Below are positions 34,870 to 62,750 of a stretch of 64,000 nucleotides of DNA, piece after piece. Numbering within the stretch: the stretch's first letter is position 1; each line of letters opens with the position of its first letter. The notes under the pieces were generated by a model. It worked only from the letters and a program-made list of their open reading frames with translations. It was not told the origin of the DNA and did no database searches. The stretch is from Ignavibacteriota bacterium (GTDB lineage: Bacteria > Bacteroidota > Ignavibacteria > UBA10030 > CAVZMI01), in contig CAVZMI010000032.1 in the NCBI GenBank assembly GCA_963776275.1, positions 41,704 through 105,703 of the forward strand, read 5' to 3'. A program made the position numbers and the translations under genes.

Positions 34870-35400
34870 TGTCTCGAGTGGCTGTTTTTACAGCCTTCGA
34901 TCATTCACAATTCCGCCTTCACTTCCGCCTTCGTTCCAAAAAACGGAACTTCGGCGGACAAGTCGTTCCGGCGCCTGCCTGCTCGCCTCGCTTCGCTCGG
35001 CGAAGCGGGCCGGAGTGCCCGCCTTCAATGAAGCCTTCGGCAGGCGAAGGCCTCCGGCACGCAGGCCCGCCTTAGTCCGGAGGACGTCGGCGGGCAGGCA
35101 GGGACAGGTCGCAAATCACAATTCATACATACCACTCCTGACGGCGCTCGATACCGAAAAACAATTCTTCATTCACCGTGGTTTGACTCGCTCACCATAC
35201 TAAAGTACTGCTCACACCACTTACCTTCGACCCCTCGATGAACTCGGGGCAAGCAAGCTTTGGATTCCGTGGTGCTCGCTGCAGGCTCGAGCCAAGACTC
35301 GGCAACCTGGCTGTTTATATAACCTTCGATCATTCACAATTCAAGAATCACAATTCACAATTTATTTGTAGCCTCGACTCGTTAACGAACCCCGGTAGGG
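34870..35400. repeat. Cluster of structured intergenic repeats (partial + full copy of a ~200-bp family, GC-rich long hairpin, TCACAATT motifs)
   Basis: Shared blocks with 54188..54392: gactcgctca, ggcaacctggctgtttatata, ccttcgatcattcacaatt and attcacaatttatttgtagcctcgactcg. No convincing ORF; translations are low-complexity. Confidence 0.7.
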
Positions 35401-35466
35401 GTGGTATATTTATAGAACCGGATTTCAGAAAAATACAAACCCTGTAAGTGTGACATGTTAAAATTT

Positions 35467-36549
35467 CTATTTCAGCAAAACCATCCGTTTTGTTATCGTG
35501 ACATTTCCGCTCTGGAGACGGCAGAAATAGACTCCACTCGACACCGATGCTGCATTCCAACGGATCACGTACGATCCCGGTTCGAGGAGAGCGTTCAGAA
35601 GTGTTTCGATTTCCTTCCCTGTGATATCAAAGAGTGTGATCGAGACACGATCATGTCTGGGCACATGGAATTTGATAGTGGTTCCGGGATTAAAAGGATT
35701 TGGATAATTCTGCTCGAGGATGAATTGCGGCGGTGTTCCGTCCACATTCTGTTCAACTCCGAGTGTGGCTTCATATGCGATTGCCGCGTTGAATATCTCT
35801 TCAACAAGAAGCGGCGCTACATGAGCCGTTGCCGCATCATTCGGGTGGCTGTTGCCGGACTCGGTGCGGTACGAGTCGGGCAATTTGCCGTCCGAACCGG
35901 CAAGATGGTGGAAGAAATCGAAAACATAGACGTTCTGCGGAAACTGTCCGAACGCCGGGTCGAAACCGCCGGCAAGCGTATCTTTTGCCCAGCGGCAGAA
36001 TTGGTCGGACAGGAGTGCCGATTCATCGCTGGTCGATTCTCTCTCCTGAGGTGCGTTCGTCCATACGACGAAAAAGTTCGCCGGGTGGTTTTGCATGACA
36101 CGGATAAAATTGCGCCAGTGCCACTTGTAATTGAAGATCGTTTTCGATGCCGGATCGGTGGTATCCGAGGGCTCGCCCTCGCCCCACAGGTCGGATGATG
36201 GAAAACACGATTTAATCATGATAATTTTGTTGGCGGCAAGGTACGGACCGATATCGGAGGTGGTATCGTTGCTATCGAAAATATCGTGCCACCTGGACCA
36301 TTCATTATCCCACGGATCCACCGGCCACCATTCTTCGTTGAGCGAGACTGCGAATGATCCGGTATATCCATGACTTGAATTATAAGCATCGATCTCCTGC
36401 GGAACGCTAGTTGCACTTCCATTCGGTCCCCAGATGCATCCGCCTGTCGAATGGTGCAGGAATATGCCGCTGCGGAATAGATTTTCTTGCGCGGATGTGG
36501 ATGTGAGAAAGGAAATTGTCAGCAAGTAAAACAGTATGGTCTTGTGCAT
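35467..36549 (-). CDS. Secreted T9SS cargo protein, catalytic domain unassigned (possibly SGNH-like)
   Basis: ORF 35467..36588; likely start MHKTILFYLLTISFLTSTSAQ. Contains IFLHHSTGG and GNSHPND blocks. C-terminal YPNPFNPGTTIKF...KRMVLLK. Confidence 0.65.
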   Translation of the reverse strand: MHKTILFYLLTISFLTSTSAQENLFRSGIFLHHSTGGCIWGPNGSATSVPQEIDAYNSSHGYTGSFAVSLNEEWWPVDPWDNEWSRWHDIFDSNDTTSDIGPYLAANKIIMIKSCFPSSDLWGEGEPSDTTDPASKTIFNYKWHWRNFIRVMQNHPANFFVVWTNAPQERESTSDESALLSDQFCRWAKDTLAGGFDPAFGQFPQNVYVFDFFHHLAGSDGKLPDSYRTESGNSHPNDAATAHVAPLLVEEIFNAAIAYEATLGVEQNVDGTPPQFILEQNYPNPFNPGTTIKFHVPRHDRVSITLFDITGKEIETLLNALLEPGSYVIRWNAASVSSGVYFCRLQSGNVTITKRMVLLK

Positions 36550-36773
36550 GTACTCCTCCATATGTAGTTTAGTTATAGTAGATTGCATGTGATAATTTCT
36601 TATATCTGCTCACGCACATAATCTACTACCTTTTTACGGCAAAGCCAACTCGACATAACCACCGCCAAAGGCAGTGGACTTCTGCTTCACACTAAAATAA
36701 AGTGGGTCGGTTTTGTTGTGAATTTACCTTGACTTTAAATGTGGAATATAATAACATGTCAACATCCTACAAC

Positions 36774-36831
36774 TATGTTTCCCAAAGCCGTGTTTGGAAT
36801 ATTGGGTGGAGCAATATAGTTATCGTTAGCC
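36774..36831 (+). repeat. Copy A of a ~60-bp direct repeat ending in GTTAGCC, 24 nt upstream of an ORF start
   Basis: tatgtttcccaaagccgtgtttggaatattgggtggagcaatatagttatcgttagcc. Confidence 0.85.
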
Positions 36832-36854
36832 ACTATAATTATTAAAGTTAAAAT

Positions 36855-37748
36855 ATGATTAATAGCATTTTAAAAGTATTAAAAAATATTCTAAAATTTT
36901 ATTTTGATATTTGTTTAATAATTATGTCGGTTATTATTATATCAATCATTTTTACCCATCTCTTTCACTCTTTATTATCTACGGGTAAATATCTAAAATC
37001 CATCTTCATAATATGGATAATTCTTTTACCGATTTTAATAATTTTATATTATCTTATTACAAAATCTAAAAATTTTGATACGTTGGGTTTTAGAATTCTA
37101 AAATTAAATAATAATAAGAAATACGCCATTAGAAATTTTTTCGTTATTACTGCTTTCACAATATCATTGATATTTCTATTCCAATTATATTATGTAAATG
37201 TCTATTTCGTACCTGTAATGTGTTCAGCAAAACCAAATTTATTTGAAGGTGATTATTTAATGGTCGATAGGTTTTGGGTAAGAAATAATTCTCCTTCTCG
37301 TGGTGAAGTAATTGGATTTAAAACTCAAAAAATGAATTTTGATCTTGTCAAAAGATGTGTAGCTTTTGGTGGAGATACAATAGAAATAAAGCAAGGAATT
37401 GTATTAATCAACAACGAACCAGAAGGCAAACTGATATATTTGAAAAATGCATATGATTTCGTTGAACAGGAAGAATTGGAATATTATAAGATAATCAAAA
37501 AAAATGGTTTTGAGCATCTAGTTTGTTATCGACCAAATGGTTATTTTCGCAAGGAACATTTTGGTCCAATCGTTATCCCGGAAAATCATTATTTTCTTTT
37601 AGGGGATAATAGAGATAATAGTGGTGATAGTAGGTATTATGGCTCTTTTCCTAAAAATGAAATGTTTTGTAAAGCAGGATTTGTATATTTTTCAATTGAC
37701 CCAATAACTAAAAAAATACGATGGTCAAGAATTGGGATAACAATTTAA
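36855..37748 (+). CDS. Signal peptidase I (S26) homolog with ~115-aa N-terminal multi-TM extension
   Basis: Contains SAKPNLFEGDYLMVDRF, GEVIGFK, VKRCVAFGGDTIE and IPENHYFLLGDNRDNSGDSRYYG. By eye, the gene is very AT-rich compared with its neighbours. Confidence 0.75.
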   Translation: MINSILKVLKNILKFYFDICLIIMSVIIISIIFTHLFHSLLSTGKYLKSIFIIWIILLPILIILYYLITKSKNFDTLGFRILKLNNNKKYAIRNFFVITAFTISLIFLFQLYYVNVYFVPVMCSAKPNLFEGDYLMVDRFWVRNNSPSRGEVIGFKTQKMNFDLVKRCVAFGGDTIEIKQGIVLINNEPEGKLIYLKNAYDFVEQEELEYYKIIKKNGFEHLVCYRPNGYFRKEHFGPIVIPENHYFLLGDNRDNSGDSRYYGSFPKNEMFCKAGFVYFSIDPITKKIRWSRIGITI

Positions 37749-37907
37749 GTAATTATAAAATAGGCGGCTAACAAAAGTATTGATTTTTTGTGTCGGCGGG
37801 TAAGCGTGGTACATTAAGCATGGCTGGCAGAGATCTCGTGAAAACTGTAAAGCAATCTACCATATTTCGATAGATATAGTTAAAATGATTTTTAATTTCG
37901 GGTGTCT

Positions 37908-37972
37908 TATGTGTTTCCCAAAGCCATGTTTGGAATATTAGGTGGATCGATATAAATTAATTATTGTTAGCC
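37908..37972 (+). repeat. Copy B of the ~60-bp direct repeat ending in GTTAGCC, 4 nt upstream of an ATG
   Basis: tatgtgtttcccaaagccatgtttggaatattaggtggatcgatataaattaattattgttagcc. Confidence 0.85.
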
Positions 37973-37975
37973 GTC

Positions 37976-38701
37976 ATGTCAACTACACATAGTCCCGTAG
38001 AATGCGGGGATTGCGGGAGCGCAATCGATGTGAGCGCAGACCCTCCTGAGGGACGAGCCCCTTGCCCGAAATGCGGAAGCAAGAAACGCGCATACTATGC
38101 CACAATGGCAAATGCACAACCAACAGACTACATGCTTGACCACTTCGTCGCGCACAAGCTTTCGCAACTCACTGAGTGCGGGGCGGCTGAACTGCCTGAG
38201 AAATCGTCTTGGTTGAATGCCTTCATTCTCAATAACCTCTTCATGGTCAACTTCCCCCTGAAGACACGCGCGTACCTGTTCAACTTCCTCAGGCGTGCTG
38301 AAGGAGCACTTTCGGGCTATCGCGAGGCGCGTCTCGCGCTGATTAACTACGTCAATACACCACGCAGCACCATCTACCCATATTTCAAGGCACTCTCGCT
38401 ATTCGAGATCTGTGTCTCGCAGTGCTACCAGGGATACGAGCTCCTCGCTACTGCATCTGGTGAGAGGTTCTTCGAGCAGGGCGATGGAAGCGCCGCAGAA
38501 CGGCTTCAAAAGCTCTATGTAGATTCCAAGCACATGGATTGCATGATTGATGGCGAAAAAGTACCATTAGAAGCAACAGTTCCCCTATGGATCACTAATT
38601 CTGGACTTGAGAGCGGTAGGGCCGCGCTCTCATTTCTGGAACTGGAAGAGATACTGCTCAACATGTACACATTAGCGGAAAAGGTTTCTATGCTTGACTA
38701 G
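37976..38701 (+). CDS. Hypothetical protein with N-terminal zinc-ribbon (CGDCGS..CPKCGS)
   Basis: 241 aa from the ATG at 37976 (the track ORF starts at TTG 37964, inside the repeat). No family recognised. GC is clearly higher than in the flanking genes. Confidence 0.6.
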   Translation: MSTTHSPVECGDCGSAIDVSADPPEGRAPCPKCGSKKRAYYATMANAQPTDYMLDHFVAHKLSQLTECGAAELPEKSSWLNAFILNNLFMVNFPLKTRAYLFNFLRRAEGALSGYREARLALINYVNTPRSTIYPYFKALSLFEICVSQCYQGYELLATASGERFFEQGDGSAAERLQKLYVDSKHMDCMIDGEKVPLEATVPLWITNSGLESGRAALSFLELEEILLNMYTLAEKVSMLD

Positions 38702-38814
38702 TACGCAGATCAAATGCGTGAGGTAATTCGATCACGCCATTACAGCTACAAGAGTGAAGAAGCCCATGTTCTCAACCTTGGCCCGGCCGGTGTCCGCAAT
38801 CGAATCGATACCCT

Positions 38815-38872
38815 TATGTTTCCCAAAAACGTGTTTGGAATATTATGTGGATCAATATAATTACCGTTAGCC
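38815..38872 (+). repeat. Copy C of the ~60-bp direct repeat ending in GTTAGCC
   Basis: tatgtttcccaaaaacgtgtttggaatattatgtggatcaatataattaccgttagcc. Confidence 0.85.
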
Positions 38873-38897
38873 CGTTTGTCGCTATAACAAATCGGAG

Positions 38898-39092
38898 ATG
38901 CCCAATATGAGCATGCAATCAGTTAAAAAAAGCAAATGGCTATACCCTCTCCTTTATGTTGCCTTTTTCATTATCAGTATGTTACCGCCTTATACAGAAA
39001 AGCCATATGCTCCACAAGATACACAGAATGTGATTTGTTGTTATTTCTGTATATGCCTTCATATTACCGCGAATATACAAGAAGCGGGCTAA
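38898..39092 (+). CDS. Small hypothetical membrane peptide (64 aa), weakly supported
   Basis: One hydrophobic segment (WLYPLLYVAFFIISML). The stop codon lies inside GGCTAAC (39087-39093). An overlapping 72-aa ORF exists in another frame. Confidence 0.3.
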   Translation: MPNMSMQSVKKSKWLYPLLYVAFFIISMLPPYTEKPYAPQDTQNVICCYFCICLHITANIQEAG

Positions 39093-39156
39093 CATTCGGC
39101 TCGACAGCGCATGAAAAAGCGTTCCGCTTTTTCATCGAGTCAGGCTTTTGTTAAGC
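39087..39156 (+). other. 70-bp attC-like imperfect palindrome (GGCTAAC ... GTTAAGC)
   Basis: ggctaac-attcggctcgacagcgcATGAAAAAGCGttcCGCTTTTTCATcgagtcaggctttt-gttaagc. It has an 11-bp central stem, flanking ctcg/cgag pairing with unpaired bases, and terminal boxes resembling RYYYAAC / GTTRRRY. Confidence 0.35.
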
Positions 39157-39196
39157 GCTCGCACATTAGGTTCGACCCATTAGAAGAGGACATACA

Positions 39197-39829
39197 ATGC
39201 GAAAAATCGAAATAGCGACAATAGGTGTTTTATTTGGTGCAGTACCCATCATCATTTGTTTTCTCGCAGGGTGGTGGATCAGCATCCCTCTTGTTCCTGA
39301 ATCATGGATATTCCTATGCGCTCTAACGGGTTTTCTTGTTGGAGTACTTGTCGATGTTCTTTTTCTAAAAACGTGGGTTCGACATGCCTATTCGATGAAA
39401 CCTATAGTCTGGATGATGATTTATCTGTTCTATTCCATTGGGATGTTCGGTTTCTTCATGGGAGTTCCGGTTTTCAATGTAGCGCTTGCCTTGCCTGCTG
39501 GTTTTTTCATCGGGGGATGGCTGGTTCATAGCGGTGCAGATTCCACACGCATGAAGAAGGTAGCGCGACATTGCGCTATATTCACTACAAGTGTCCTAGC
39601 ACTTATTTGCATCGCATCAGCCGCAATTGCTCTGGCCAGTTCCTCCACAGCTTCCGATCTTCAAAAAATGTTCGGTCTTTCAGTTCAGGTTACACCCGCG
39701 ATGATCATTGGCATCATCTTGGGCGGAGGCATCTTCATCCTTATTCTTCAATGGTGGCTCACATTCAAGTCTGTAGAGCGAGCGTATAGATATTTTTTTG
39801 CACGTGTCAGTCCGTCAACGTTCACATGA
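39197..39829 (+). CDS. Hypothetical polytopic membrane protein
   Basis: 210 aa with 5-6 hydrophobic segments. No family recognised. Confidence 0.6.
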   Translation: MRKIEIATIGVLFGAVPIIICFLAGWWISIPLVPESWIFLCALTGFLVGVLVDVLFLKTWVRHAYSMKPIVWMMIYLFYSIGMFGFFMGVPVFNVALALPAGFFIGGWLVHSGADSTRMKKVARHCAIFTTSVLALICIASAAIALASSSTASDLQKMFGLSVQVTPAMIIGIILGGGIFILILQWWLTFKSVERAYRYFFARVSPSTFT

Positions 39830-39852
39830 AGTATATCATAGTTTGTATATAG

Positions 39853-39950
39853 TTACCGAGCGCTAACCAGCGGCTCCTCGGTAAATCCCACTGGACCCCA
39901 CAATCCCACATAAAACGTGGGACGAGTACAACACGAGAATGTGGGACGTA
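39853..39950. repeat. Hairpin cluster with CCCAC/GTGGG words (related to 45884..46143)
   Basis: ttaccgag..ctcggtaa stem, then aatCCCACtggaCCCCACaaTCCCACataaaacGTGGGAcgagtacaacacgagaatGTGGGAcg. Confidence 0.55.
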
Positions 39951-39988
39951 GTGCAACATTGCATGACAATTAATCGGAGATTAAAGGG

Positions 39989-40447
39989 ATGGAAATTAGA
40001 GATGCCATATTTAATGATCTTCCTTCAATATTAAAGCTACAAAAGTTGTGTTATCGGGAAAATGCGGAACGATATAACGACTATCAAATACCACCAATGA
40101 TTCAGACAATTAATGATTTAGAAGATGAATTTAATTATAATGTAATATTAAAAGCTGAAGATCAATCTAAAATAATTGGCAGTCTAAGAGCATATGAAAA
40201 AAATGGTATTTGTTACATCGGGAGAGTTATTGTTCATCCCGACTACCAAAACAAAGGAATTGGAACAAAATTGATGATAGAGATTGAAAGAAGATTCCCC
40301 AATGTTTCAAAATATGAATTATTTACTGGATATAAAGACGAAAAAAATATTTACTTCTATGGTAAATTGGGCTATAAGATTTTTAAGGAAGAAAACCTTG
40401 GCTATAAGATAAAACTTGTTTTCCTGGAAAAAATAAGAATAGGATGA
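39989..40447 (+). CDS. GNAT-family N-acetyltransferase
   Basis: Contains VIVHPDYQNKGIGTKLM (motif A) and a YGKLGYK tail. Confidence 0.85.
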   Translation: MEIRDAIFNDLPSILKLQKLCYRENAERYNDYQIPPMIQTINDLEDEFNYNVILKAEDQSKIIGSLRAYEKNGICYIGRVIVHPDYQNKGIGTKLMIEIERRFPNVSKYELFTGYKDEKNIYFYGKLGYKIFKEENLGYKIKLVFLEKIRIG

Positions 40448-40451
40448 AATC

Positions 40452-41039
40452 ATGAAACAGATTGTCACAAAGGAAGCCCTCAAGGATTTGTCGTCTGATA
40501 ATCCGAGAATAAAATACAAACGGGTCAAAAATCTCCTGACGATTGCCGGGAAGAACCCGGAACAACTCTACCCACATCTCCCCTTCTTTGTCAAACTTCT
40601 CAAGAGCGAGAACAACATTTTAAAGTGGATGGCAATCGACATCATTGGATCTCTATCCAGGGTCGATACGGCGAAGAGAATCGATGGATTGCTGACGACT
40701 CTCTTTGGATTCCTTCGAGCCGGGAAAATGATTACTGCGAACCATGCAATCGCCGCCCTGTCTGCCATCGCTTCAGCTAAACCATATTATCAGAAGAAAG
40801 TGACACAGGAGCTTTTAAAAGTCGAGCAATATACGTACGACACAGATGAGTGTCATAATATAGCCCTCGGGAAAGTCATTGTGGAAATAAATTCGTATTT
40901 TAAAGAACTGAAGCAGAATGATCAGGTCGTGGAATTCGTCAGCAGGCAGATAAATAATTCGCGTGCCGCAACAAGGAAAAAAGCTGAGAATTTCTTAAAA
41001 ATTCATAAAAACCAACCAACGAAGGAGAATAAACAATGA
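40452..41039 (+). CDS. Hypothetical alpha-helical (HEAT/ARM-like) protein
   Basis: 195 aa with helical-repeat character. The start lies 4 nt after the GNAT stop, and the stop overlaps the next start (ATGA). Confidence 0.45.
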   Translation: MKQIVTKEALKDLSSDNPRIKYKRVKNLLTIAGKNPEQLYPHLPFFVKLLKSENNILKWMAIDIIGSLSRVDTAKRIDGLLTTLFGFLRAGKMITANHAIAALSAIASAKPYYQKKVTQELLKVEQYTYDTDECHNIALGKVIVEINSYFKELKQNDQVVEFVSRQINNSRAATRKKAENFLKIHKNQPTKENKQ

Positions 41040-41420
41040 AATCGATTAAATTGGTTTTCCTCTACGGATTTCTCATCTGGCTAATACCCTTCATCGTATC
41101 GTTCATTATATTCCCGATTCATGAGAATGACCGTACGCTGTTCGAATCTATCATGCCTGTCGTATTGACTATTAGTACAGTTCTGTTTTCAATTCTTTAT
41201 TTAAAAAAGGTCGAAACTAAATTTTTAAAAGAGGGCATTCTCCTCGGCGTTATCTGGTTTCTGATAAGCTTCATTATCGACCAGTTTTTGTTCAGCGCAG
41301 GTCCCCATGAAAATGAGTTTTATCGACTATATAAAAGATATCGGACTTACTTATTTGATCATTCCCACCGTCACAATCGGATCCGGTTATCTCCTTGTAA
41401 TTAGACAGAAACCTCAATAA
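41036..41420 (+). pseudogene. Small 4-TM membrane protein with 1-nt frameshift near the 3' end
   Basis: ORF 41036..41404 ends in a non-membrane-like tail. After CCCC 41303-41306 the +1 frame reads MKMSFIDYIKDIGLTYLIIPTVTIGSGYLLVIRQKPQ* (a plausible last TM helix), stopping at 41418-41420. Confidence 0.55.
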
Positions 41421-41429
41421 AATTATATA

Positions 41430-41954
41430 ATGCAGATTGAAAAATTACTATCCGGCGGCGATCTGCGTTCGATCGGGAAAAGCAATTCTGTTGTTTTGAA
41501 AATAAAAAATCAAAACGACTTTGACGAACTTTTTCAATGCTTGTTTCATAAAGACAGAATTGTTGTAATGCGCGCGGCCGATGCAATTGAAAAAATAACA
41601 ATAAAGGATCCTCTGTATCTGGCAAGGCATAAGAAAAAAATACTGGAATTGTGCAACACCGCTGACGATAAAGAACTTCAATGGCATCTCGCTCTCATGA
41701 TTCCAAGGCTGCATCTGACCTATAAAGAACTTGCAAGAATGTGGAATTTACTATCACGCTGGGCATCGGATAATAGGGAGAGCAGGATTATGCAGGTGAA
41801 TTCGATTCAGGGTCTTTTTGAATTATCAAGAGTCCACACTAAATTGATCACCGACTTCAATATGATTCTTTCCAACATTGAACGGCAAAATATACCCTCC
41901 ATCGCGGCAAGAATAAGAAAATTGAAGAAGTCGTTCGGTCGAATCAATCCATGA
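41430..41954 (+). CDS. Hypothetical HEAT-like protein (DNA-alkylation-repair/AlkD-like fold, tentative)
   Basis: 174 aa, helical. The VVMRAADAIEKIT..LQWHLALMIPRL pattern is suggestive only. Confidence 0.4.
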   Translation: MQIEKLLSGGDLRSIGKSNSVVLKIKNQNDFDELFQCLFHKDRIVVMRAADAIEKITIKDPLYLARHKKKILELCNTADDKELQWHLALMIPRLHLTYKELARMWNLLSRWASDNRESRIMQVNSIQGLFELSRVHTKLITDFNMILSNIERQNIPSIAARIRKLKKSFGRINP

Positions 41955-42109
41955 CATCTTCCGTATAATCGATATGGCATGCGACGATCAAATATCGTAT
42001 ATTATTGAAAATAATCTTCAATAATAGAAAAGTAATTTTCCCCTTTGCGCTTTTACTTTTTCCTAAATAACGTCATTATACCATTGTCTCACAGTCGGAA
42101 CATATCGGA

Positions 42110-43252
42110 ATGAAACGATTCATACTTTTAATCTTGCTATTTGTTGCTGTTGGCAGCACTTCATGTAAGGAAGACACAGCCGGTTCCGATGAGAACCAGC
42201 CACCGGCAAATTACAACTCGGCACTTGCAACGCTTCTCGATTCGCTCAGGAATGTATATAATCTTCCCGCCCTCGCCGGTGCCATTGTAACAGATACGGG
42301 TGTGATCGATGCGCAGGCAGTCGGCTGCAGACGATACGCCGGGCCGGCAAATGTAACTGTAAACGACCAATTCCACCTCGGTTCGAATACCAAAGCCATC
42401 ACTGCAGTCCTCTTGGGAATTCTTGTCGACAGCACTCTTCTCGGCTGGGATTCGACATTGCCGTCGATATTTCCAGAGTATGCAGAAACAATGCGAACTG
42501 AATACCGCTCTGTCACAGTACGCGATATCCTTTCTCACAGCGCAGGATTCATCCGTGATCCATCCCTGACGCTTACTACACAAACACTAAGGGATCAGCG
42601 TGCGGAAGTCGTCGCTTGGGCTCTTAAACAACCCCCCGCAAACGTGCGCGGACAATATCTCTACAGTAATCTCGGGTACATTATTGCCGGAGCTATCGCG
42701 GAAAAGTTGACGAATCGTCCGTACGAGGATCTTCTCATGGAACGGGTTCTCCAGCCTCTCGGAATAACCACGGCTGGTTTCGGCCCCATGGGAACGGTCG
42801 GACTCGAAGATCAACCGCTTCAGCATACACCTCAGTACATACCTCTTCAACCCGAAGCGGCCGCAGATAACCCTCCAATATATAATTCTGCGGGGAGGCT
42901 TCATATGTCGGTTGGTGACTGGGGCCGGTACATACAATGGGTACTGGCATGTGAGGCTGGACATCCCACGCTGCTTCGTCCTGAAACCGCACACACTCTG
43001 ACTACGGGGGTAGTACCGATGCCCGGAGAGGGTTCGTATGCATTCGGGTGGGTAATTGTCGACCGGCAGTGGGCCGGCGGGCGCACACTCACACATACAG
43101 GGAGCAATGGGCTGAACTTCGCGGTCGCATGGCTCGCCCCGAATCGAAGATTCGCGGTCCTTGCTGAAACGAATATCTGCACCAGCACGACACCCGGCTC
43201 GATGGACGCCGTCGTCGGCCGGATGATTATGTTCCATTTGAACGGACACTAG
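42110..43252 (+). CDS. Serine hydrolase, beta-lactamase/transpeptidase-like (class C / S12 family)
   Basis: Lipoprotein-type signal (..GSTSC). Contains SxxK (LGSNTKAIT) and YxN (YSNLGY). By eye, GC-rich relative to its neighbours. Confidence 0.85.
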   Translation: MKRFILLILLFVAVGSTSCKEDTAGSDENQPPANYNSALATLLDSLRNVYNLPALAGAIVTDTGVIDAQAVGCRRYAGPANVTVNDQFHLGSNTKAITAVLLGILVDSTLLGWDSTLPSIFPEYAETMRTEYRSVTVRDILSHSAGFIRDPSLTLTTQTLRDQRAEVVAWALKQPPANVRGQYLYSNLGYIIAGAIAEKLTNRPYEDLLMERVLQPLGITTAGFGPMGTVGLEDQPLQHTPQYIPLQPEAAADNPPIYNSAGRLHMSVGDWGRYIQWVLACEAGHPTLLRPETAHTLTTGVVPMPGEGSYAFGWVIVDRQWAGGRTLTHTGSNGLNFAVAWLAPNRRFAVLAETNICTSTTPGSMDAVVGRMIMFHLNGH

Positions 43253-43258
43253 GACACG

Positions 43259-44065
43259 ATGAGCAGCGAAAACTTTTCAACGATAGCCCAACGATATAGA
43301 GAGACTTCGATAATCCAGAAGTCTGCAGCAGAAACATTATTTTCATTACTGGATCTCAAGGATGGTGAAAGTGTTTTGGATATCGGCTGCGGAACCGGAA
43401 ACCTGACAAAAAAGATTTTCGATATCACTCATGGAAGAACCGTCGGCATCGATCCTTCAAAAGGTATGATCGATGAATCGATAAAATCTTACGGTAATAT
43501 CATGGAATTCCGGATGATGAGGGCAGAGGATCTTGACTTTAAAAATGAATTTGATGCGGTCTTCTGCAATTCTACCTTTCAATGGATTCGGGATGTCGAT
43601 AAAGTCACAGCCAATTTCTATCGCGCACTCAAAAAGGAAGGACGTATAGGAATTCAGGCTCCGGGGAGAAGGCAATATTGTCCGAATTTCATCGCGGCTG
43701 TTTCAGAAGTACTTAAAAATCCCGGCACAAGAGAGTATTTTCGGAATTTTAAACATCCCTGGTTTTTTCGCGATACCGCCGACGAGTACTCACAATACTT
43801 CCTCAGACAGGGATTTCACATTGCTTTGAGTGAAATACAAACAATGGAAACATACCACAGTCCTGAAGAGATATATGAGATATTTGCATCGGGTGCGATT
43901 GCAGGATACCTGAATAAAGAGTATTACCCGGATGGATTCGACGAGTCATATAAAAAAGAATTTGAACGAATCGTGAAAGACTCATTCTATAAGCAGGCCG
44001 GCAGTGATGGAAAGGTAAAATTAGTATTTAATAGAATATTTTTAATCGCCGAAAAAACTGCATGA
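43259..44065 (+). CDS. Class I SAM-dependent methyltransferase
   Basis: Contains VLDIGCGTGNLT (motif I) and FDAVFCNSTFQW. Confidence 0.85.
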   Translation: MSSENFSTIAQRYRETSIIQKSAAETLFSLLDLKDGESVLDIGCGTGNLTKKIFDITHGRTVGIDPSKGMIDESIKSYGNIMEFRMMRAEDLDFKNEFDAVFCNSTFQWIRDVDKVTANFYRALKKEGRIGIQAPGRRQYCPNFIAAVSEVLKNPGTREYFRNFKHPWFFRDTADEYSQYFLRQGFHIALSEIQTMETYHSPEEIYEIFASGAIAGYLNKEYYPDGFDESYKKEFERIVKDSFYKQAGSDGKVKLVFNRIFLIAEKTA

Positions 44066-44145
44066 AAAGAATATTTGTCGCTATAGTTATATCTGCACTA
44101 TCCGTTGAAAAATAACATAATACATTTTATCAACAGGATGGCAAA

Positions 44146-45300
44146 ATGAAACTATCGAAAGCCATGATAGAACTATTCATCGTCGTTTCGCTACTTATCA
44201 CAGCCGCTGCATTATGCTTTGGACAGCAAAAGAATATCAATTCTTCCGGCTTCGAAATTCACAGAGGCGTCAACCTGAGCCATTGGCTGTCGCAATGTTT
44301 AGGGTGGTCGCCCAGGGAGACTTTTATCACAGAGAAGGATATACAATTTATCGACAGCATGGGCTACGACCATGTGCGAATACCTATCGATGAAACCGAG
44401 ATGTGGACAAGCGACGGAAAGCCGATAGAAGAATCATTCACATATCTCACCCGCTGCCTCGACTGGTGCGCGAAACACAATTTAAGGGCTATTGTCGATC
44501 TTCATATCCTGAAATCGCATAATTTCAACGCCGATAATGAAGGCGGGGAAAATATATTATGGACAGACTCTTCAGCACAGCACAATTTCATCAAACTCTG
44601 GAATGACATTTCGGATTACCTGAAAAATTATCCTGTCAACATGGTTGCCTATGAGCTTATGAACGAGGCGGTTGCGCCTAACCATGAAGACTGGAACAGG
44701 TTGATTGCCAAAGCTGTAAAGGTGATCCGCATACTTGAACCCAATCGTGTTCTTATCATCGGATCGAATAGATGGCAAAGACCCGAATTTTTCCCGCAGT
44801 TAAAAGTGCCTGAGAATGATAAAAATATTATCCTCAGTCTGCACACATATTCGCCAATTCATTTTACACACAATCGGGCCGACTGGACATCCTTCAAATT
44901 ATACACCGGGCCTGCACACTATCCCGGCCAGGTTGTTGCCGACGCCGATTATAAAAAATATGTCGACACAAATAATTTAGCTCTTGTGCATGGAATGGAC
45001 GGATCGGTCCAGGTATTCGATAAAAAGAGGCTTACAGAAGAACTGCTGCCTGCTGTACAGAAAGCCAAGGAACTCAATCTTCAGCTTTACTGCGGTGAAT
45101 TTGGATGCCTTCCTCATGTCGACAGAACTGAAAGGTTGAAATACTACAACGATATCGTCTCGGCATTCGAAGAGAACAATATCGCCTGGTGCAACTGGGA
45201 ATATAAAGGCGACTTTGGAATATATTCTTTTGACTTTGAGAAAAAAGTCTCCCTCTCACCCGATTTCGGATTGATCAACATTCTGATGCAAAAGAAATAA
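44146..45300 (+). CDS. GH5 glycoside hydrolase (cellulase family)
   Basis: Signal peptide. Contains GVNLSHWLSQ, DHVRIPIDE, AIVDLH, YELMNEAV and YCGEFG. Confidence 0.85.
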   Translation: MKLSKAMIELFIVVSLLITAAALCFGQQKNINSSGFEIHRGVNLSHWLSQCLGWSPRETFITEKDIQFIDSMGYDHVRIPIDETEMWTSDGKPIEESFTYLTRCLDWCAKHNLRAIVDLHILKSHNFNADNEGGENILWTDSSAQHNFIKLWNDISDYLKNYPVNMVAYELMNEAVAPNHEDWNRLIAKAVKVIRILEPNRVLIIGSNRWQRPEFFPQLKVPENDKNIILSLHTYSPIHFTHNRADWTSFKLYTGPAHYPGQVVADADYKKYVDTNNLALVHGMDGSVQVFDKKRLTEELLPAVQKAKELNLQLYCGEFGCLPHVDRTERLKYYNDIVSAFEENNIAWCNWEYKGDFGIYSFDFEKKVSLSPDFGLINILMQKK

Positions 45301-45348
45301 TAAACTGCCCCACACCTCACCTGCCGGCTATAAATAGGAGAAAATCTG

Positions 45349-45756
45349 ATGAATGAAAATTTAAACTCTGCACAGGAAGATTACACGGGTGGTGGGCGGC
45401 AAGATCATGAACCTCCGGTCGTCATCGCTTCATATGGCTGGCGCTATCATCATCTCGGTATACCAACCGATATCCCCCGCCCCGGCGAGCGATTTCTTGA
45501 GCAATTCAAGATGTATGTGTCGGGTTTCGAAACAAGTCCTTACGGCATCGAATGGATGCGATTCGAGCAGGATAGCCCTGTTTCTGAACTGATCAGAAAT
45601 GTTCCCCACTTAGCCTTTGAAGTAGACGATCTCGATTTTGCAATAAAGGGTAAATATATACTAACTGAAGCAACCTCTCTCTCCAATGGCATAAGGGTTG
45701 CCATGATCATCCATGACGGCGCCCCTATCGAACTCCTTGAATTTCGAAAGGGCTGA
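45349..45756 (+). CDS. VOC/glyoxalase-like small protein (tentative)
   Basis: 135 aa with HHLGIPT and HLAFEVDDLDFAIKG blocks. Confidence 0.55.
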   Translation: MNENLNSAQEDYTGGGRQDHEPPVVIASYGWRYHHLGIPTDIPRPGERFLEQFKMYVSGFETSPYGIEWMRFEQDSPVSELIRNVPHLAFEVDDLDFAIKGKYILTEATSLSNGIRVAMIIHDGAPIELLEFRKG

Positions 45757-45883
45757 CAATCATTGCTTTTACACACAAGAATAATTAATTTTTATAGATC
45801 GGGACGTTTGAAAAACTCTGTTTATATATTTTCTATGGACACACTTGAGCCGGCGGTCTGAAACAACCTGTATTTTCTGAATT

Positions 45884-46143
45884 GCCACGAGCTCGGGCTT
45901 TTACGCCCCACGCTTTCGTGCTTTTCACGTCCCACGATCTTTGTGGGACCAGTGGGGTTAACTCGTGGGAAATAAGAGGAGAAAAATGAGGGGTTTTAAC
46001 CCCACATTAAATTGATGTAGGGCTAAAGCCCGCAAAGATTTTTTAGATTTAAAAATCCACGACCTGACCCCACTGGAAAGCGTGGGGCGTAAATCCCACA
46101 GGAAACGTGGGACGGAAAAAACCCGAAGCACGAGGTCGTGGCC
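45884..46143. repeat. 260-bp BIME-like cluster of inverted repeats and GTCCCAC-N7-GTGGGAC hairpins
   Basis: A 17-nt perfect inverted repeat, ttacgccccacgctttc (45901-45917) / gaaagcgtggggcgtaa (46076-46092). Hairpins gtcccac-gatcttt-gtgggac (45929-45949) and tcccac-aggaaac-gtggga (46094-46112). Outer arms gccacgagctcg / cgaggtcgtggc. Confidence 0.75.
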
Positions 46144-46225
46144 ATTCATTCGGCATTAATTTTTCTCCGACCGGATATGTTATTCAGAGGTCTCAGCATT
46201 TAAAAGCCATGGAGAGATTCAATCA

Positions 46226-46603
46226 TTGGCTAAGGCACTTACAATAAGGGAAGTACCTTGCAACGGCTGCACGCTCTGCTGCCAGGGTGATGCCATCAAG
46301 CTTGAAGAAGAAGACCGGGCGCTGGATTATAAGACGGAATCCCATCCGTACATCCCAGGAGCCCTCATGATTGCACATAAACCGAACGGTGAATGTTTCT
46401 ACTTAAATGAACAAGGCTGCAGCATCCACAGCTGGGCGCCTTCATTGTGCCGTAGCGCTGATTGCCGCAGTCTCGCCATTAAATTGAATTATGATGCAGT
46501 ACGTTCACTCCATATGATGGGCAGGCTGGATTTCCGGGTATGGCTGCAGGGACGCAGACTTATCGAGGCAATGACCGCTCATGGCGGAAAGGATAATCAG
46601 TAA
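46226..46603 (+). CDS. YkgJ-family (UPF0153) cysteine-cluster protein
   Basis: TTG start. Contains CNGCTLCCQG ... CSIHSWAPSLCRSADC. Confidence 0.65.
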   Translation: MAKALTIREVPCNGCTLCCQGDAIKLEEEDRALDYKTESHPYIPGALMIAHKPNGECFYLNEQGCSIHSWAPSLCRSADCRSLAIKLNYDAVRSLHMMGRLDFRVWLQGRRLIEAMTAHGGKDNQ

Positions 46604-46609
46604 AATAAA

Positions 46610-47326
46610 ATGCTTAAAATCAGCGATATTGCCAAGATGATCGACCATTCAATTCTTCATCCTACATTTACAGATGATGATTTAAAGAAGAACTGTGATA
46701 TAGCAAAAAAATATCATGTTGCCACAGTATGTGTCAAGCCCTATCATACTCGGATGGCGGCTGAATTACTTAAAGGCTCCGATGTGGGGGTATGTGCAGT
46801 AATCGGTTTCCCGCATGGAAACAGTTCGACTGATATTAAAAATGCAGAAACACTTCAGGTAATTAACGACGGCGCAACAGAAGTGGATATGGTGGTGAAT
46901 ATCGGAAAAGTAATGCAGGGTGACTGGTCATATATCGACAACGAACTTAAAACAATTAATGATACCTGCCGTAAAAACAGGGCACTGTTAAAAGTCATTT
47001 TTGAGACGGACTTCGTATCGCGCGACAAGGATAAAATAAGACTATGCGAACTTTGCAACAAACATGATATTGCTTTTGTGAAGACATCGACCGGTTACGG
47101 ATTTGTCAGGAATAACAATGGAAAATATTCGTATGCCGGAGCGACCGAACACGATGTAAAGCTTATGCGTAAACATTGCGCTCCCGGAGTAAAGATAAAA
47201 GCTGCCGGTGGTGTACGGACACTTGATCAATTATTGAAATATCGCGAGCTGGGTGTGACTCGAATAGGTGCCTCGGCAACGGAAGCTATTATGGAAGAAG
47301 CGAAAAAACGTTTCGAATCGAAATAG
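46610..47326 (+). CDS. deoC: Deoxyribose-phosphate aldolase
   Basis: Contains MIDHSILHP, VCVKP, VIGFPHG, EVDMVVNIG, FVKTSTGY and KAAGGVR. Confidence 0.9.
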   Translation: MLKISDIAKMIDHSILHPTFTDDDLKKNCDIAKKYHVATVCVKPYHTRMAAELLKGSDVGVCAVIGFPHGNSSTDIKNAETLQVINDGATEVDMVVNIGKVMQGDWSYIDNELKTINDTCRKNRALLKVIFETDFVSRDKDKIRLCELCNKHDIAFVKTSTGYGFVRNNNGKYSYAGATEHDVKLMRKHCAPGVKIKAAGGVRTLDQLLKYRELGVTRIGASATEAIMEEAKKRFESK

Positions 47327-47336
47327 AGGTTGTTCA

Positions 47337-47780
47337 GTGAATATCGAAATTATCGAAGCAAAAAAAGAAGATTTGCCCTCAATCTTAAAGCTCTATGCCG
47401 TTGAAGACATTGATAACGGCGATATCCTATCAATCGGAAAAGCAGAAGTAATATTTAATAGAATGCAATCGTATCCGAACTATAAAATCTATATTGCAAA
47501 ATATAATGGGAAAACGGTGGGCACATTTTCACTCTCGATAATGGATAACATAGCACATCTCGGTAAATCTTCCGGTCTGGTTGAAGATGTGGTGGTTGAT
47601 AAAACCATGAGATCAAAAGGAATTGGGAAGATAATGATGGAATATGCCATGAAAATATGTAAAGAAAGTAACTGCTATAAAATGAGTCTATCCAGTAATT
47701 TGAAAAGAGAAAGAGCACATAGTTTTTACGAGAAATTAGGATTTGAAAAACATGGGTTCAGTTTTTTAATTAAAATATGA
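47337..47780 (+). CDS. GNAT-family N-acetyltransferase
   Basis: The GTG start at 47337 is in frame with track ORF 47268..47780. Contains VEDVVVDKTMRSKGIGKIMMEYAM and FYEKLGFE. Confidence 0.85.
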   Translation: MNIEIIEAKKEDLPSILKLYAVEDIDNGDILSIGKAEVIFNRMQSYPNYKIYIAKYNGKTVGTFSLSIMDNIAHLGKSSGLVEDVVVDKTMRSKGIGKIMMEYAMKICKESNCYKMSLSSNLKRERAHSFYEKLGFEKHGFSFLIKI

Positions 47781-47886
47781 TTTCGCAGGGCGAGAAGAAC
47801 TTCCGAAAATAATCAGCTGTTCTCAAAGCCCGCATAACGGTTGCAGAATATTTTTGTATGATCATAAATGATATAATAGATTTTTA

Positions 47887-48693
47887 ATGAATACCGATTA
47901 TGTCCATGGATATACAGAGCGAGAGTCGATCAGATTGGAAGATCAAGCCAATTGCCTGAGCGAGCTTCTCCACCACGATTCTATTTTTCCTAAAGGCTCG
48001 ATAATACTCGAGGCCGGCTGCGGAACCGGAGCTCAGACAAAGATCATTGCCCCCAAAAATCCTGACTCAAAATTCATATCAATTGATATTTCCGAAGATT
48101 CATTGCGTAAAGCCGATTCTCTCATAAAATCACTTAATATCAATAATGTCGAGTTTCAAACCGGCAACATTTTTAATCTGAAATTTGAAGAAGAATCCTT
48201 TGACCATGTTTTCGTTTGTTTTGTACTTGAACATCTTCCCAATCCTGTCGGAGCGTTACGAGCATTAAAAAAAGTATTGAAAAAAGGGGGATCCATTACG
48301 GTCATTGAAGGAGATCACGGCTCTGCCTATTTTTATCCTTACAGCCGGTATGCGCAAGAAGCGATTGATGCACTGGTAAAATTGCAGTCGACAAACGGCG
48401 GAAACGCCTCAATAGGCAGAGAACTTTACCCGCTTTTAAGCATCTCGAATTTTAAAAACTGCAAGGTTTCTCCCAGAATGGTTTATGTCGATTCGAGTAG
48501 ACCTGAACTTGTTGAGGGCTTTACAAAAAATACTTTTACGGCTATGATTGAAGGAATAAGAAATAAAGCTGTCAATAGTTGTCTCATCGATAAAAGCTCC
48601 ATTGAAAAAGGTATTCAGGATTTGTATCGAACGACTCAGATTGACGGTGTTTTTTGTTACACATTTTTCAAGGGAATTGGGTATAATATTTAA
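47887..48693 (+). CDS. Class I SAM-dependent methyltransferase
   Basis: Contains ILEAGCGTGAQT and FDHVFVCFVLEHL. Confidence 0.85.
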   Translation: MNTDYVHGYTERESIRLEDQANCLSELLHHDSIFPKGSIILEAGCGTGAQTKIIAPKNPDSKFISIDISEDSLRKADSLIKSLNINNVEFQTGNIFNLKFEEESFDHVFVCFVLEHLPNPVGALRALKKVLKKGGSITVIEGDHGSAYFYPYSRYAQEAIDALVKLQSTNGGNASIGRELYPLLSISNFKNCKVSPRMVYVDSSRPELVEGFTKNTFTAMIEGIRNKAVNSCLIDKSSIEKGIQDLYRTTQIDGVFCYTFFKGIGYNI

Positions 48694-48744
48694 AAAAGCA
48701 GTCGATGCAAGGAACAAATCCCTCGGGAGAATAATAAAAGAAAA

Positions 48745-50508
48745 ATGAAATCATCGTTGGCATTATTGAGTTTGCTTTCACTGCTTGCCTGTTCGATTAA
48801 TCCGCATGTCTGTGCACAGAACGATATACAAAAGACTTACTGTGATAAAGCGTATAAAGAATATCATTATGGTGTACCGTTTTTGCATCTGGAAGGGACC
48901 GATTATGAAGTAGGTTACCAGTACGGTTATCTCCTTAAAGATGAGTTACATGCCGTGTACGAGGGATTCAACGATTTCAAAGAAAACATGATGGAAAGGG
49001 AAATAAAATACCTGCCCTGGTATCAAAGATTTTTCGCTAATCTGTTTGGCTCGTTAATTTTAAAACACAAAATAAACAAATATGTCGATCAACTTCCGGA
49101 TGATATCCATAATCAATTGAAAGGCATGGCTGACGGTGCTGATATGCCGGTCAGATTTTTTTATGAAGTCAATCTCTTCGGCGATTATTTATCTCACGGA
49201 TGTTCTTCATTCGTCATAAAGAAAGGAAGCATAATCTATCACGCCCGCAACCTCGATACGCCGCTCAATCTGATCGCCAGATATCCTGTCATTGTGTGTT
49301 ACAGCATTAACGGACGACAAAAATATACAGATATAGGATTTATTTCCGGATTGATGATTTCCACCGGCTTCAACGAATCAGGAATTTCTTTTTCAGAAGA
49401 TTCAAATAATAATCCGATGGCTTTCGATAAGAATAATTCGAACCTGCTGGTTGAACGAAACAGAATTATAACCCGGGCTCACAATCTAAAAGAGGCCGAT
49501 TCATTAGTCAATGCGTTACTTATTCCCGAGGGATATATTTTTACACTCTCGGACAGTGAAGAAAAACAGGCAAATGTCTACGATGTAATCGGAAAAATAA
49601 AAGCTGCCACTCCGGTAGACGGTTATCAATATGTGGCAAACAGAACAATATCGCACGTCCTGGGTAAAAAAAGCGAATCGATTTATGCTGGTAATTTCCA
49701 TGATATCTCAAGGGAAATAAAATTTTCAGAATTAATCGATACAACTAAGACAAATATCGTCGACGAGGCAATAGATATCTTAAGTAACATCCATTTCTAT
49801 CATTACACCGACTCGATAGAAGTGTGGATCGATGCAATCAATAATTATCAAACGATTCAATCGGCAATTTTTGATCTGGCCGATTCGGCCGTGTATTTCG
49901 CATACAATACACACTATGCTGCATGGAGCAGATGGTTGAAGTATAACTATATTACAGGTGAGGTTGGTGTCTATAGAGAAGCCGATGACAAATTGAACCG
50001 AGCGGATATCTTGAAATTTGTCGATATCTGTAAAGAGTACCAGGCAGCAGACTGGCGCGACAGCACGATGGTCGATTCACTGGTTCGCCACATCATCGAT
50101 TCACAAATTGAAAATTACTTTTGCCTTGATGTATTATGTCAGCAATATCTATATCGTTTTAAAGCACCGGATATAACAATCGCTCATGCCGACAAAATGA
50201 TCAAGAAATATCCAGATGTAGTCACGGGTTATTATTACAAAGGTCTCGCTCTCGAAGAACAGAAACAATACGGCAATGCAATCACTCAATATATGAAAGC
50301 ATTCAATTGTACTATATGCTGTGAATATTACCTTGCCGGTGTCTGCGAACATCTCGCTTATTCGAATAATTTTCTGGGAAACAAAGAAATTGCCAAAGAA
50401 TATGCAGTAAAAGCATTGGCAATCCATAATCAGTATTGGATTCCGGATCATTTGAAAGAAAAGATTGAGAAGCTTGAAAAGATTGCGGCTATAGATTCAA
50501 AACGCTAA
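48745..50508 (+). CDS. C45-family (acyl-CoA:6-APA acyltransferase-like Ntn hydrolase) domain fused to C-terminal TPR-like region, secreted
   Basis: Signal peptide. Contains GTDYEVGYQYGYLLKDEL, a HGCSSFVIKKGSIIYHARNLD nucleophile-Cys context, and C-terminal TPR-like helices (YYYKGLALEEQKQYGNAI). Confidence 0.55.
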   Translation: MKSSLALLSLLSLLACSINPHVCAQNDIQKTYCDKAYKEYHYGVPFLHLEGTDYEVGYQYGYLLKDELHAVYEGFNDFKENMMEREIKYLPWYQRFFANLFGSLILKHKINKYVDQLPDDIHNQLKGMADGADMPVRFFYEVNLFGDYLSHGCSSFVIKKGSIIYHARNLDTPLNLIARYPVIVCYSINGRQKYTDIGFISGLMISTGFNESGISFSEDSNNNPMAFDKNNSNLLVERNRIITRAHNLKEADSLVNALLIPEGYIFTLSDSEEKQANVYDVIGKIKAATPVDGYQYVANRTISHVLGKKSESIYAGNFHDISREIKFSELIDTTKTNIVDEAIDILSNIHFYHYTDSIEVWIDAINNYQTIQSAIFDLADSAVYFAYNTHYAAWSRWLKYNYITGEVGVYREADDKLNRADILKFVDICKEYQAADWRDSTMVDSLVRHIIDSQIENYFCLDVLCQQYLYRFKAPDITIAHADKMIKKYPDVVTGYYYKGLALEEQKQYGNAITQYMKAFNCTICCEYYLAGVCEHLAYSNNFLGNKEIAKEYAVKALAIHNQYWIPDHLKEKIEKLEKIAAIDSKR

Positions 50509-62665: not shown

Positions 62666-62750
62666 GAACCTCTCCAAAGAGGCTGCTAAAAAAAATATTT
62701 TTAGTATTAATGCGTTTTGGCTCAATATCTTTGTACGGCCAAATCACCGG

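Follow-up and report, generated by a model that had tools for sequence, protein, structure and literature searches.

The stretch analyzed here is a 64-kb window (the whole 64,000 nucleotides) of chromosomal DNA from a bacterium of the Fibrobacteres-Chlorobi-Bacteroidetes (FCB) group, and this report concerns a short run of single-gene units at 36.6-39.9 kb that are joined by a repeated junction sequence. A sequence-only reading of the window had suggested that these units form an integron-type cassette array of the kind called a cluster of attC sites that has no integron integrase (CALIN). The clustering of the repeats and of the short words that delimit the units is far above chance. The explanation that we favor, at about even odds, is that the region is a short integron-type cassette array without a nearby integrase (CALIN-like), located at a synteny break in an Ignavibacteria/KSB1-like chromosome.

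The window encodes many glycoside hydrolases sorted by the type IX secretion system (T9SS), together with Nuo genes, tgt, yajC, ribBA, and greA, as assigned with Pfam and NCBIfam. The top named relatives of a flanking protein were found in Ignavibacteria and KSB1, and the host chromosome is Ignavibacteria/KSB1-like. Leftward of 36.6 kb, the genes run on the − strand, and every open reading frame (ORF) from 36855 to 50508 is on the + strand, in agreement with the earlier claim that all of the units point one way. The gene adjoining the array encodes a T9SS-sorted protein. For the left flank, the nearest relative identified (locus L011, 82% DNA identity) retains the heptosyltransferase and T9SS genes, and all similarity to the window is lost at ~36560, which is the edge of the array. 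No match was obtained when the 64-kb window was scanned against Rfam at the gathering thresholds, and a tRNA scan of the window found none.

Three direct copies of a 58-65-nt repeat are present at 36774-36831, 37908/37910-37972, and 38815-38872, and their near-identity, described from the letters alone, is borne out. The core TTTCCCAAA-N4-TGTTTGGAATATT is exact in all three copies (0 chance matches expected), and there is no fourth copy of this core in the 64-kb window. When the copies were aligned with their flanks, the conservation was found to start sharply at (T)TATG and to stop exactly at GTTAGCC, with insertions of 2 and 5 nt in copy 2. The identity is ~90% over 58 nt, ahead of genes with a GC content of 26% and 52%, and the substitutions are limited to a few positions. 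The first 30 nt of this 58-nt module form a small hairpin (TTTCCCAAA-N6-TTTGGAA), behind which come a box resembling L', a spacer of 8 nt, and GTTAGCC as the R' box. In copy 3, the final 22 nt correspond to L' (7 nt), spacer (8 nt), and R' (7 nt); copy 1 has AGCAATA where copy 3 has ATCAATA, with identical spacing. Each module ends shortly before an ORF, as had been noticed, and the gaps were measured to be 23, 3, and 25 nt for the ORFs that start at 36855, 37976, and 38898, respectively.

Exact-pattern scans for the repeat in the GTDB genomes, JGI metagenomes, and IMG/VR returned chance matches only, none of which continued the repeat. The existence of just three copies, with none in the public collections scanned, would suit the notion that the repeats are inert leftovers of a local duplication or gene conversion. 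However, the copies have sharp edges, their substitutions are confined to few positions, they are linked to inverse words and to inverted repeats at the ends of individual units, and a diverged homolog at another locus (L038) shares their layout. We consider inert leftovers to be very improbable.

Integron core sites follow the consensus GTTRRRY, and the inverse core is RYYYAAC. The 64 kb contain five occurrences of the word GTTAGCC/GGCTAAC, none of them outside 36825-39093. The + strand has three, at the ends of the repeats, and the − strand has two (GGCTAAC at 37766-37772 and 39087-39093), both of which the sequence-only reading had correctly placed at or after ORF stops. The related words CGCTAAC (39861-39867) and GGCTGAC (45751-45757) are both present as well; the latter has no partner and no support, and it was rejected as a cassette boundary. 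The perfect 9-bp inverted pair reported previously is real and extends to 12 bp, formed by GGCGGCTAACAA (37763-37774) and TTGTTAGCCGTC (37964-37975). The boundary of each unit falls at the G|TT of a GTTRRRY-like core, which is GTTAGCC in three cases (one deviation from the consensus) and GTTAAGC in one.

The coordinates of cassettes 1-3 run to the G of the next core site. Each of the four units (Table 1) contains one ORF, in the same orientation and with a very short leader. ORF1 is a homolog of signal peptidase I (S26), as assigned with Pfam and NCBIfam. ORF2 encodes a conserved protein of 241 amino acids with a 4-Cys zinc ribbon and a helical domain. Exact-sequence look-ups of ORF3 and ORF4 showed neither to be on record. 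The G|TT junction of unit 4 has no 58-nt module. The GC content is a mosaic, with 26% in unit 1, 51-52% in ORF2 and the following 113 nt, 38% in unit 3, and 45% in unit 4, relative to a window mean of 44% and flanks of 44-47%. The strong difference that had been judged by eye is thus confirmed by measurement for ORF1 (26%), ORF2 (52%), and the ORF3 unit (38%).

Table 1. Units, junction sites, and associated features of the array (positions in the 64-kb window)
Feature	Positions	Strand	Description
Sigma-70-like promoter match	36723-36757	+	TTTACC-18-TATAAT and TTGACT-17-TAACAT; consensus match only
Site A	36592-36831	+	3' module is repeat copy 1 (36774-36831); weak 5' arm; no inverse core
Cassette 1	36826-37965	+	starts TTAGCC; ORF1 36855-37748; inverse core GGCTAAC 37766-37772; unit GC 26%
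Site B	37766-37972	+	207 nt; R'' GGCTAAC, 5 nt, L'' TATTGAT ... copy 2, L' ATCGATA, 13 nt, R' GTTAGCC
Cassette 2	37966-38865	+	starts TTAGCCGTC; ORF2 37976-38701; then 113 nt, then repeat copy 3
Site C, 3' module (repeat copy 3)	38815-38872	+	hairpin TTTCCCAAA-N6-TTTGGAA, L'-like ATCAATA, 8-nt spacer TAATTACC, R' GTTAGCC
Cassette 3	38867-39149	+	ORF3 38898-39092, 64 aa, hydrophobic
Site D	39087-39156	+	70 nt; GGCTAAC, 5 nt, GCTCGA ... 11-bp hairpin 39111-39135 ... TCGAG(T)C, 8 nt, GTTAAGC
Unit 4	39150-39875	+	starts G|TTAAGCGCTCG; ORF4 39197-39829, 210-aa membrane protein; CGAGCGCTAAC at 39857-39867
Own-end repeat, unit 1	36825-36850 and 37738-37772		GTTAGCC AC TATAATTATTAAAGTTA vs TAACAATTTAAGTAATTATA..GGCTAAC; p~0.01-0.02
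Own-end repeat, unit 2			neither arm found; p 0.39
Own-end repeat, unit 3	38866-38886 and 39074-39093		GTTAGCCCGTTTGTCGCTATA vs TATACAAGAAGCGGGCTAAC; p<0.001; p 0.013 in 52-gene test
Own-end repeat, unit 4	39150-39161 and 39857-39867		GTTAAGCGCTCG vs CGAGCGCTAAC; one indel; p 0.08

The 5' ends of cassettes 1 and 3 were found to be complementary to the inverse word at the 3' end of the same cassette over 20-35 nt. Among the 52 window genes tested, only three others have own-end repeats of this type at p≤0.02. The same relation is found in two classical plasmid cassettes that were used as controls. The aadA2 cassette starts with G|TTAGACATCAT, and GTTAGACATCAT is matched by the start of its attC, ATGATGTCTAAC; the cmlA1 cassette starts with G|TTGGGCG, and GTTGGGCG is matched by CGCCCAAC. 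This relation between the cassette end and the inverse core reportedly served Hall, Stokes, and colleagues to locate the integron crossover at G|TT.

Terminal inverted repeats that are imperfect and 20-35 nt long, as in units 1 and 3, are also what would be expected if the units were passenger genes of a mobile insertion cassette or a miniature inverted-repeat transposable element (MITE), mobilized by a transposase encoded elsewhere, that had landed beside copies of a repetitive stretch of the backbone. Unit 4 constitutes a discrete block at another locus in a relative (L048, below), and a methyltransferase gene at 43259-44065 is also enclosed by a 24-nt inverted repeat. No target-site duplications flank units 1, 3, and 4, however, the unit ends differ from one another apart from the GTTAG/CTAAC core, and no transposase is found in the window. 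Insertion always at G|TT fits site-specific recombination better than transposition, and a transposon-like origin appears quite unlikely to us. The repeat around the methyltransferase gene (43190-44125) is imperfect, pairs ATGATTATGTTCCATTTGAACGGA with TCCGTTGAAAAATAACATAATACAT (p<0.004), and has its left arm inside the 3' end of a beta-lactamase-family gene.

The junctions between the units were then considered as folded sites. Sites B and D have arms of the form R''-5-L'' ... L'-8/13-R'. Site B combines a 12-bp outer stem with an L pair (TATTGAT/ATCGATA), its 5' arm is significant at p~0.007, and its L'' box, TATTGAT, is the exact complement of the ATCAATA in repeat copy 3. Site D folds strongly on either strand (z about -4.7), and an 8-bp R stem closes the form that it would take in an excised circle. 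Arms with R and L boxes are thus seen at sites B and D, whereas the arms of sites A and C are not significant. The candidate 5' arm of site A, GATAA..TATATCTGCTCAC (36592-36613), is complementary to the spacer plus GTGGAGCAATATA with p~0.09, and that of site C, GGTAATTCGATCAC at 38733-38746, has p 0.35.

The hairpin of the module may be viewed in a different manner, as a palindrome with 11-nt arms, TGTTTCCCAAA and TTTGGAATATT, that are invariant among the copies and a 6-nt spacer that varies (GCCGTG, GCCATG, and AACGTG). Xer/dif modules have a 28-nt site of the same 11-6-11 arrangement that is bound by XerC/D, with flanking sites in opposite orientations. The palindrome could be the core site of an Xer-like or other simple tyrosine recombinase at which the units were exchanged (pdif/dif-like), and L038 likewise keeps a palindrome in the corresponding place, with other arms. 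Against this proposal, the conservation extends 35 nt past the palindrome, up to GTTAGCC, and it is at GTTAGCC rather than at the palindrome that the unit-specific sequence begins. The sites are direct repeats, unlike the inverted pairs of pdif modules, the genes diverge here in a locus unlike a terminus, and the G|TT junction of unit 4 has no palindrome at all. Exchange at the palindrome is rated very improbable.

It had also been suggested that the repeat is a shared promoter or 5' leader. In this alternative, three genes without relation to one another would share the 58-nt repeat as a promoter, operator, or leader, with the palindrome TTTCCCAAA-N6-TTTGGAA as the binding site of a regulator and the transcription start close to GTTAGCC; GGCTAAC would either be incidental or base-pair with the mRNA at its 5' end. 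The fixed position of the module, 3-25 nt ahead of each start codon, is consistent with such a role, as is the retention of the palindrome arms about a variable spacer. The -10-like hexamers TATAGT, TATAAA, and TATAAT are found 5-11 nt before GTTAGCC in the modules, and TATAAT is kept in L038, where a homolog of the module stands directly upstream of the ORF2 homolog (p 0.002). However, there is no acceptable -35 box in the modules, and a sigma-70 scan flagged no site within the repeats. The Bacteroidetes-type promoter (TTTG ... TAnnTTTG, -7 box) is not used upstream of the genes in this window, and no copy of the module precedes any other gene in the window. The ~90% identity over 58 nt exceeds what an operator would need, the own-end inverted repeats and the breakpoint at the module-less G|TT of unit 4 are left unexplained, and the upstream similarity in L018, L028, L017, and L022 is not significant. 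The suggestion retains a -10-like box and has lost the -35 box and the -7 boxes; as a full explanation, we find it a weaker rival and improbable. The promoter idea and the cassette reading are compatible, because cassette-borne promoters, including cassette-internal ones, are known (PMC6557892, PMC11014356). The sigma-70-like match at 36723-36757 points into the array from ~20 nt upstream of repeat copy 1, and it is possibly a promoter of the cassette-promoter (Pc) type or one carried by an ORF-less cassette, as predicted from its match to the consensus.

A homolog of ORF4 with 90% amino-acid identity was found on a 1.63-Mb contig (L048), and the comparison of the two loci bears directly on the cassette reading. 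The DNA match to the window is restricted to 39149-39875 (89% over 738 nt), with unrelated neighbors, and it starts exactly at the predicted G|TT (39149/39150). Our covariance model of attC (R1, described below) matches L048 at 9816-9873 (31.7 bits, E 1e-6, ending in GTTAGAC) and at 6418-6490 (E 0.02), beside the ORF4 homolog. Because these matches adjoin the L048 gene, the homolog of ORF4 lies among canonical attC sites in this relative. To the left of G|TT, the L048 sequence continues a duplicated cassette 5' end and a signal-peptide remnant; therefore, the breakpoint arose in the lineage of the window, and the own-end repeat of unit 4 may be due to chance.

Further observations were made at L048. 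The matches to canonical attC sites adjoin a gene for a type IIG restriction-modification protein of 1090 amino acids. A 92-nt duplication with 92% identity (9865-9956 and 14397-14488) comprises a cassette 5' end plus signal peptide and precedes the ORF4 homolog as well as a different gene, which is BNR_2 sialidase-like. There is no integrase within 20 kb.

ORF2 belongs to a widespread and highly conserved family of ~240 amino acids with many invariant polar residues, such as RR, YR..R, YVDSKHMD, and WITN (alignment A4). The AlphaFold model of ORF2 is confident, with a predicted local distance difference test (pLDDT) score of 89.6, but the best fold match in the PDB reaches an E value of only 0.23. 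About 190 homologs were identified; most are on short contigs, and their contexts vary. None was found on plasmids, phages, or viral contigs. ORF2 was considered as the recombinase of the array and rejected, having no match in Pfam, PADLOC, NCBIfam, or PDB sequences and nothing that ties it to DNA recombination. An integrase near the ORF2 homolog in L017 was likewise rejected as an IntI, and is instead a generic Xer-like recombinase.

The ORF2 homologs in L018, L038, and L028 keep GTYAG..ATG directly ahead of the start codon. L018, a GC-rich contig, contains a co-oriented array of genes for CopG, a GATase, a 262-amino acid ORF, the ORF2 homolog, and a TIR-domain protein, with junctions that terminate in GTTAGGC or GTTAGCA. 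Two of these junctions (about 1100-1256 and about 3020-3142) share a ~130-nt repeat that contains CCTTGACAAGYCCTTGGAAAC and ends in GTAGTTAGGC, and the unit with the 262-amino acid ORF has an own-end complement, GTTAGGCGGAGTC vs GACTCCACACAAC, that matches at 10/13 nt. R1 gave no match in L018. Upstream of ORF2, the sequence shared by L018 and the window is present only from G|TTAGC onward. In L038, the 172-amino acid ORF that precedes the ORF2 homolog has a perfect 10-bp own-end repeat (GTTAAGTGTG vs CACACTTAAC). The ~207-nt junction between them contains a diverged homolog of the module, TTAT..GTGTTT..TATAATTATTGTTAG, with the palindrome in the same place; among the upstream regions compared with the window, that of L038 alone is significantly similar. 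The loci of ORF2 homologs in L017, L022, and L028 are not arrays.

Several results weigh against the cassette reading. The attC sites of integrons usually measure about 57-141 nt with spacers of 5 and 6 nt, and homogeneous chromosomal families of attC conserve both halves of the site. Sites A-C measure 150-240 nt, which is at or beyond the usual range, and they conserve only the 3' 58 nt, while their 5' arms differ from site to site. The 5' arm of site B is the only significant one. The L stems are without the usual bulge in the 5' arm, and the spacers are 5/8 rather than 5/6 nt. Both GTTAGCC and GGCTAAC are one position off the consensus, no inverse core was found for cassette 2, and the own-end test of that cassette gave p 0.39. 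The left arm of the own-end repeat of unit 4 derives from the signal-peptide coding remnant in L048, and this repeat was downgraded from strong evidence. The homology with L048 ends 7-8 nt past the CGCTAAC inverse core, and no shared attC follows. Sites A and C, like cassette 2, have a decayed appearance.

The search for attC sites adds to these results. The covariance model R1 was home-made from 13 aligned attC sites of class 1 integrons from plasmids, with R and L stems, and it recovered two held-out class 1 attC sites with 55 and 37 bits. It gave no match at sites A-D, either in the whole 64 kb or in the 3.5 kb at 36.5-40 kb alone. R1 is biased to aadA-like sites and misses several attC-like sites identified by eye in L035 and L048, so its negative result is weak evidence; it weighs against canonical attC at sites A-D and is not decisive. 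A loose rule-based scan for R and L boxes, which has no discriminating power, returned 12 and 9 matches vs ~15.5 per strand in shuffled sequences, with no enrichment. Profile searches found no tyrosine recombinase, Phage_integrase, or IntI match in any sizeable ORF of the 64-kb window, in agreement with the earlier statement that no integrase is visible. The arrangement of a complete integron, with intI, attI, and Pc beside the first cassette, is not found in the window. Complete integrons have been reported in Ignavibacteriae (PMC9024848).

The cassette reading explains why the junctions lie at G|TT, why the two ends of a unit are complementary, why all units have one orientation, and why their GC content varies; it also accounts for the loss of synteny at the array edge and for the comparisons with L048, L018, and L038. 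The original proposal is thus supported in part. What stands of it are the boundaries at G|TTAGCC and G|TTAAGC, the own-end complementarity of units 1 and 3, and the breakpoint and attC sites of L048; what does not are the R1 match, the length of the sites, and the arms of sites A and C. We class the region as behaving like an integron cassette array, probably a CALIN in partial decay whose junctions form an atypical, clade-specific family. Every cassette begins with TTAGCC or TTAAGC, immediately after the G of a GTTRRRY-like core. In the mechanism that we propose, the 58-nt repeats would represent the 3' part, the conserved half, of three junction sites that are related and unusually long, and each would be part of the cassette that precedes it. 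A tyrosine recombinase of the IntI type, lost or encoded at another place, would have cut and rejoined the DNA at G|TT on folded junctions and, in this way, stacked genes of differing origin in one orientation. We infer both the identity of this recombinase and its action on single strands, and the array may still be active at present. Transcription would enter from the promoter-like sequence at 36723-36757, and the -10-like box of the module may contribute.

The resemblance to integron cassettes and CALIN (PMC9024848) includes co-oriented single-gene units, G|TT boundaries, an inverse core at the end of the same unit, mixed GC content, and the lack of an integrase nearby. Sites B and D resemble integron attC as imperfect hairpin junctions with R and L boxes. 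Unlike integron attC, however, the sites are missed by R1, three of them measure 150-240 nt, the spacer on the 3' side has 8 rather than 6 nt, and the 5' arm has no bulge; unlike integron cassettes, the core and inverse core are each one position off the consensus, and one cassette has no inverse core. The near-identical junction repeats behind unrelated genes, with a diverged member in L038, are reminiscent of the attC families of sedentary chromosomal integrons, such as the Vibrio cholerae repeats (VCR). In the VCR the whole attC is conserved, including the 5' half, whereas here the conservation is limited to the 3' 58 nt. Ahead of cassette 1, a 240-nt stretch has no ORF and carries a sigma-70-like match; this stretch and the -10-like boxes of the modules are similar to promoter-bearing and ORF-less cassettes (PMC6557892, PMC11014356). 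The known cases are whole cassettes, whereas here the module is in the 3' half of attC and the promoter is predicted from the sequence. Small passenger units with inverted repeats, or with palindromes like a recombinase core, are also typical of mobile insertion cassettes, MITEs, and the pdif (Xer) modules of Acinetobacter plasmids. The array differs from these in its lack of target duplications and common transposon ends, its sites in direct orientation, and its G|TT junctions.

A more ambitious possibility, which we consider unlikely, is that the 58-nt module is a portable, clade-specific junction element made up of the 3' half of attC, a conserved hairpin, and a -10 box, and that it acts as both a docking site and an expression signal for the downstream cassette. 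The system that uses it might be integron-like, perhaps served by a recombinase other than IntI, and its sites would go undetected with the standard attC model. If so, many arrays in Ignavibacteria-like and uncultured lineages, including those of L018 and L038, would be invisible to current integron finders. If the cassettes work as proposed above, gene capture in the FCB group uses junctions unlike those of the proteobacterial model, being longer, half-conserved, and differently spaced, and cassette arrays in uncultured phyla would be undercounted by surveys based on the standard covariance model of attC. A promoter within the junction module would have consequences for the expression of distal cassettes in chromosomal arrays. 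If the array is merely a decayed remnant, it is an ordinary CALIN.

The co-oriented run of genes continues beyond unit 4, from 39989 to 50508, with genes for a GNAT protein, a HEAT-repeat protein, a beta-lactamase-family protein, a methyltransferase, a GH5 protein, a glyoxalase-like protein, DeoC, a second GNAT protein, and a second methyltransferase. The GC content swings from 37% to 54% in this segment, and the gene content is cassette-like in appearance. No pairs of G|TT and inverse core were found in 39989-50508, and several of the genes abut without a spacer. A foldback of ~265 nt at 45880-46145, with two ~90-nt arms rich in CCCAC/GTGGGA, occupies most of the 470-nt gap ahead of a gene for a CxxCxxCC protein. 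A solo copy of one arm of this foldback is found at 39880-39960, just after unit 4, and the hairpin TCCCAC-N7-GTGGGA occurs three times (39904, 45930, and 46094) vs 0.04 expected. The foldback may be a MITE-like or repetitive extragenic palindrome (REP)-like element that cut the junction after unit 4.

A 4.2-kb Logan contig (L010, run ERR10755944) matches the window at 35076-39235 with 99.95% identity, and a 1-nt indel splits its T9SS gene. The contig ends at 39235, just beyond junction D, and this break at the array may reflect strain variation there. Elsewhere in the window, a GH5 cellulase gene is apparently split (3531-4621). The ORF at 3878-4621 matches positions 55-268 of the profile only, and it is overlapped by an ORF at 3531-3989 that has no family match; a frameshift is possible. 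The nuoM gene is split into two overlapping ORFs (61087-61980 and 61631-62725), which points to a frameshift or a sequencing error.

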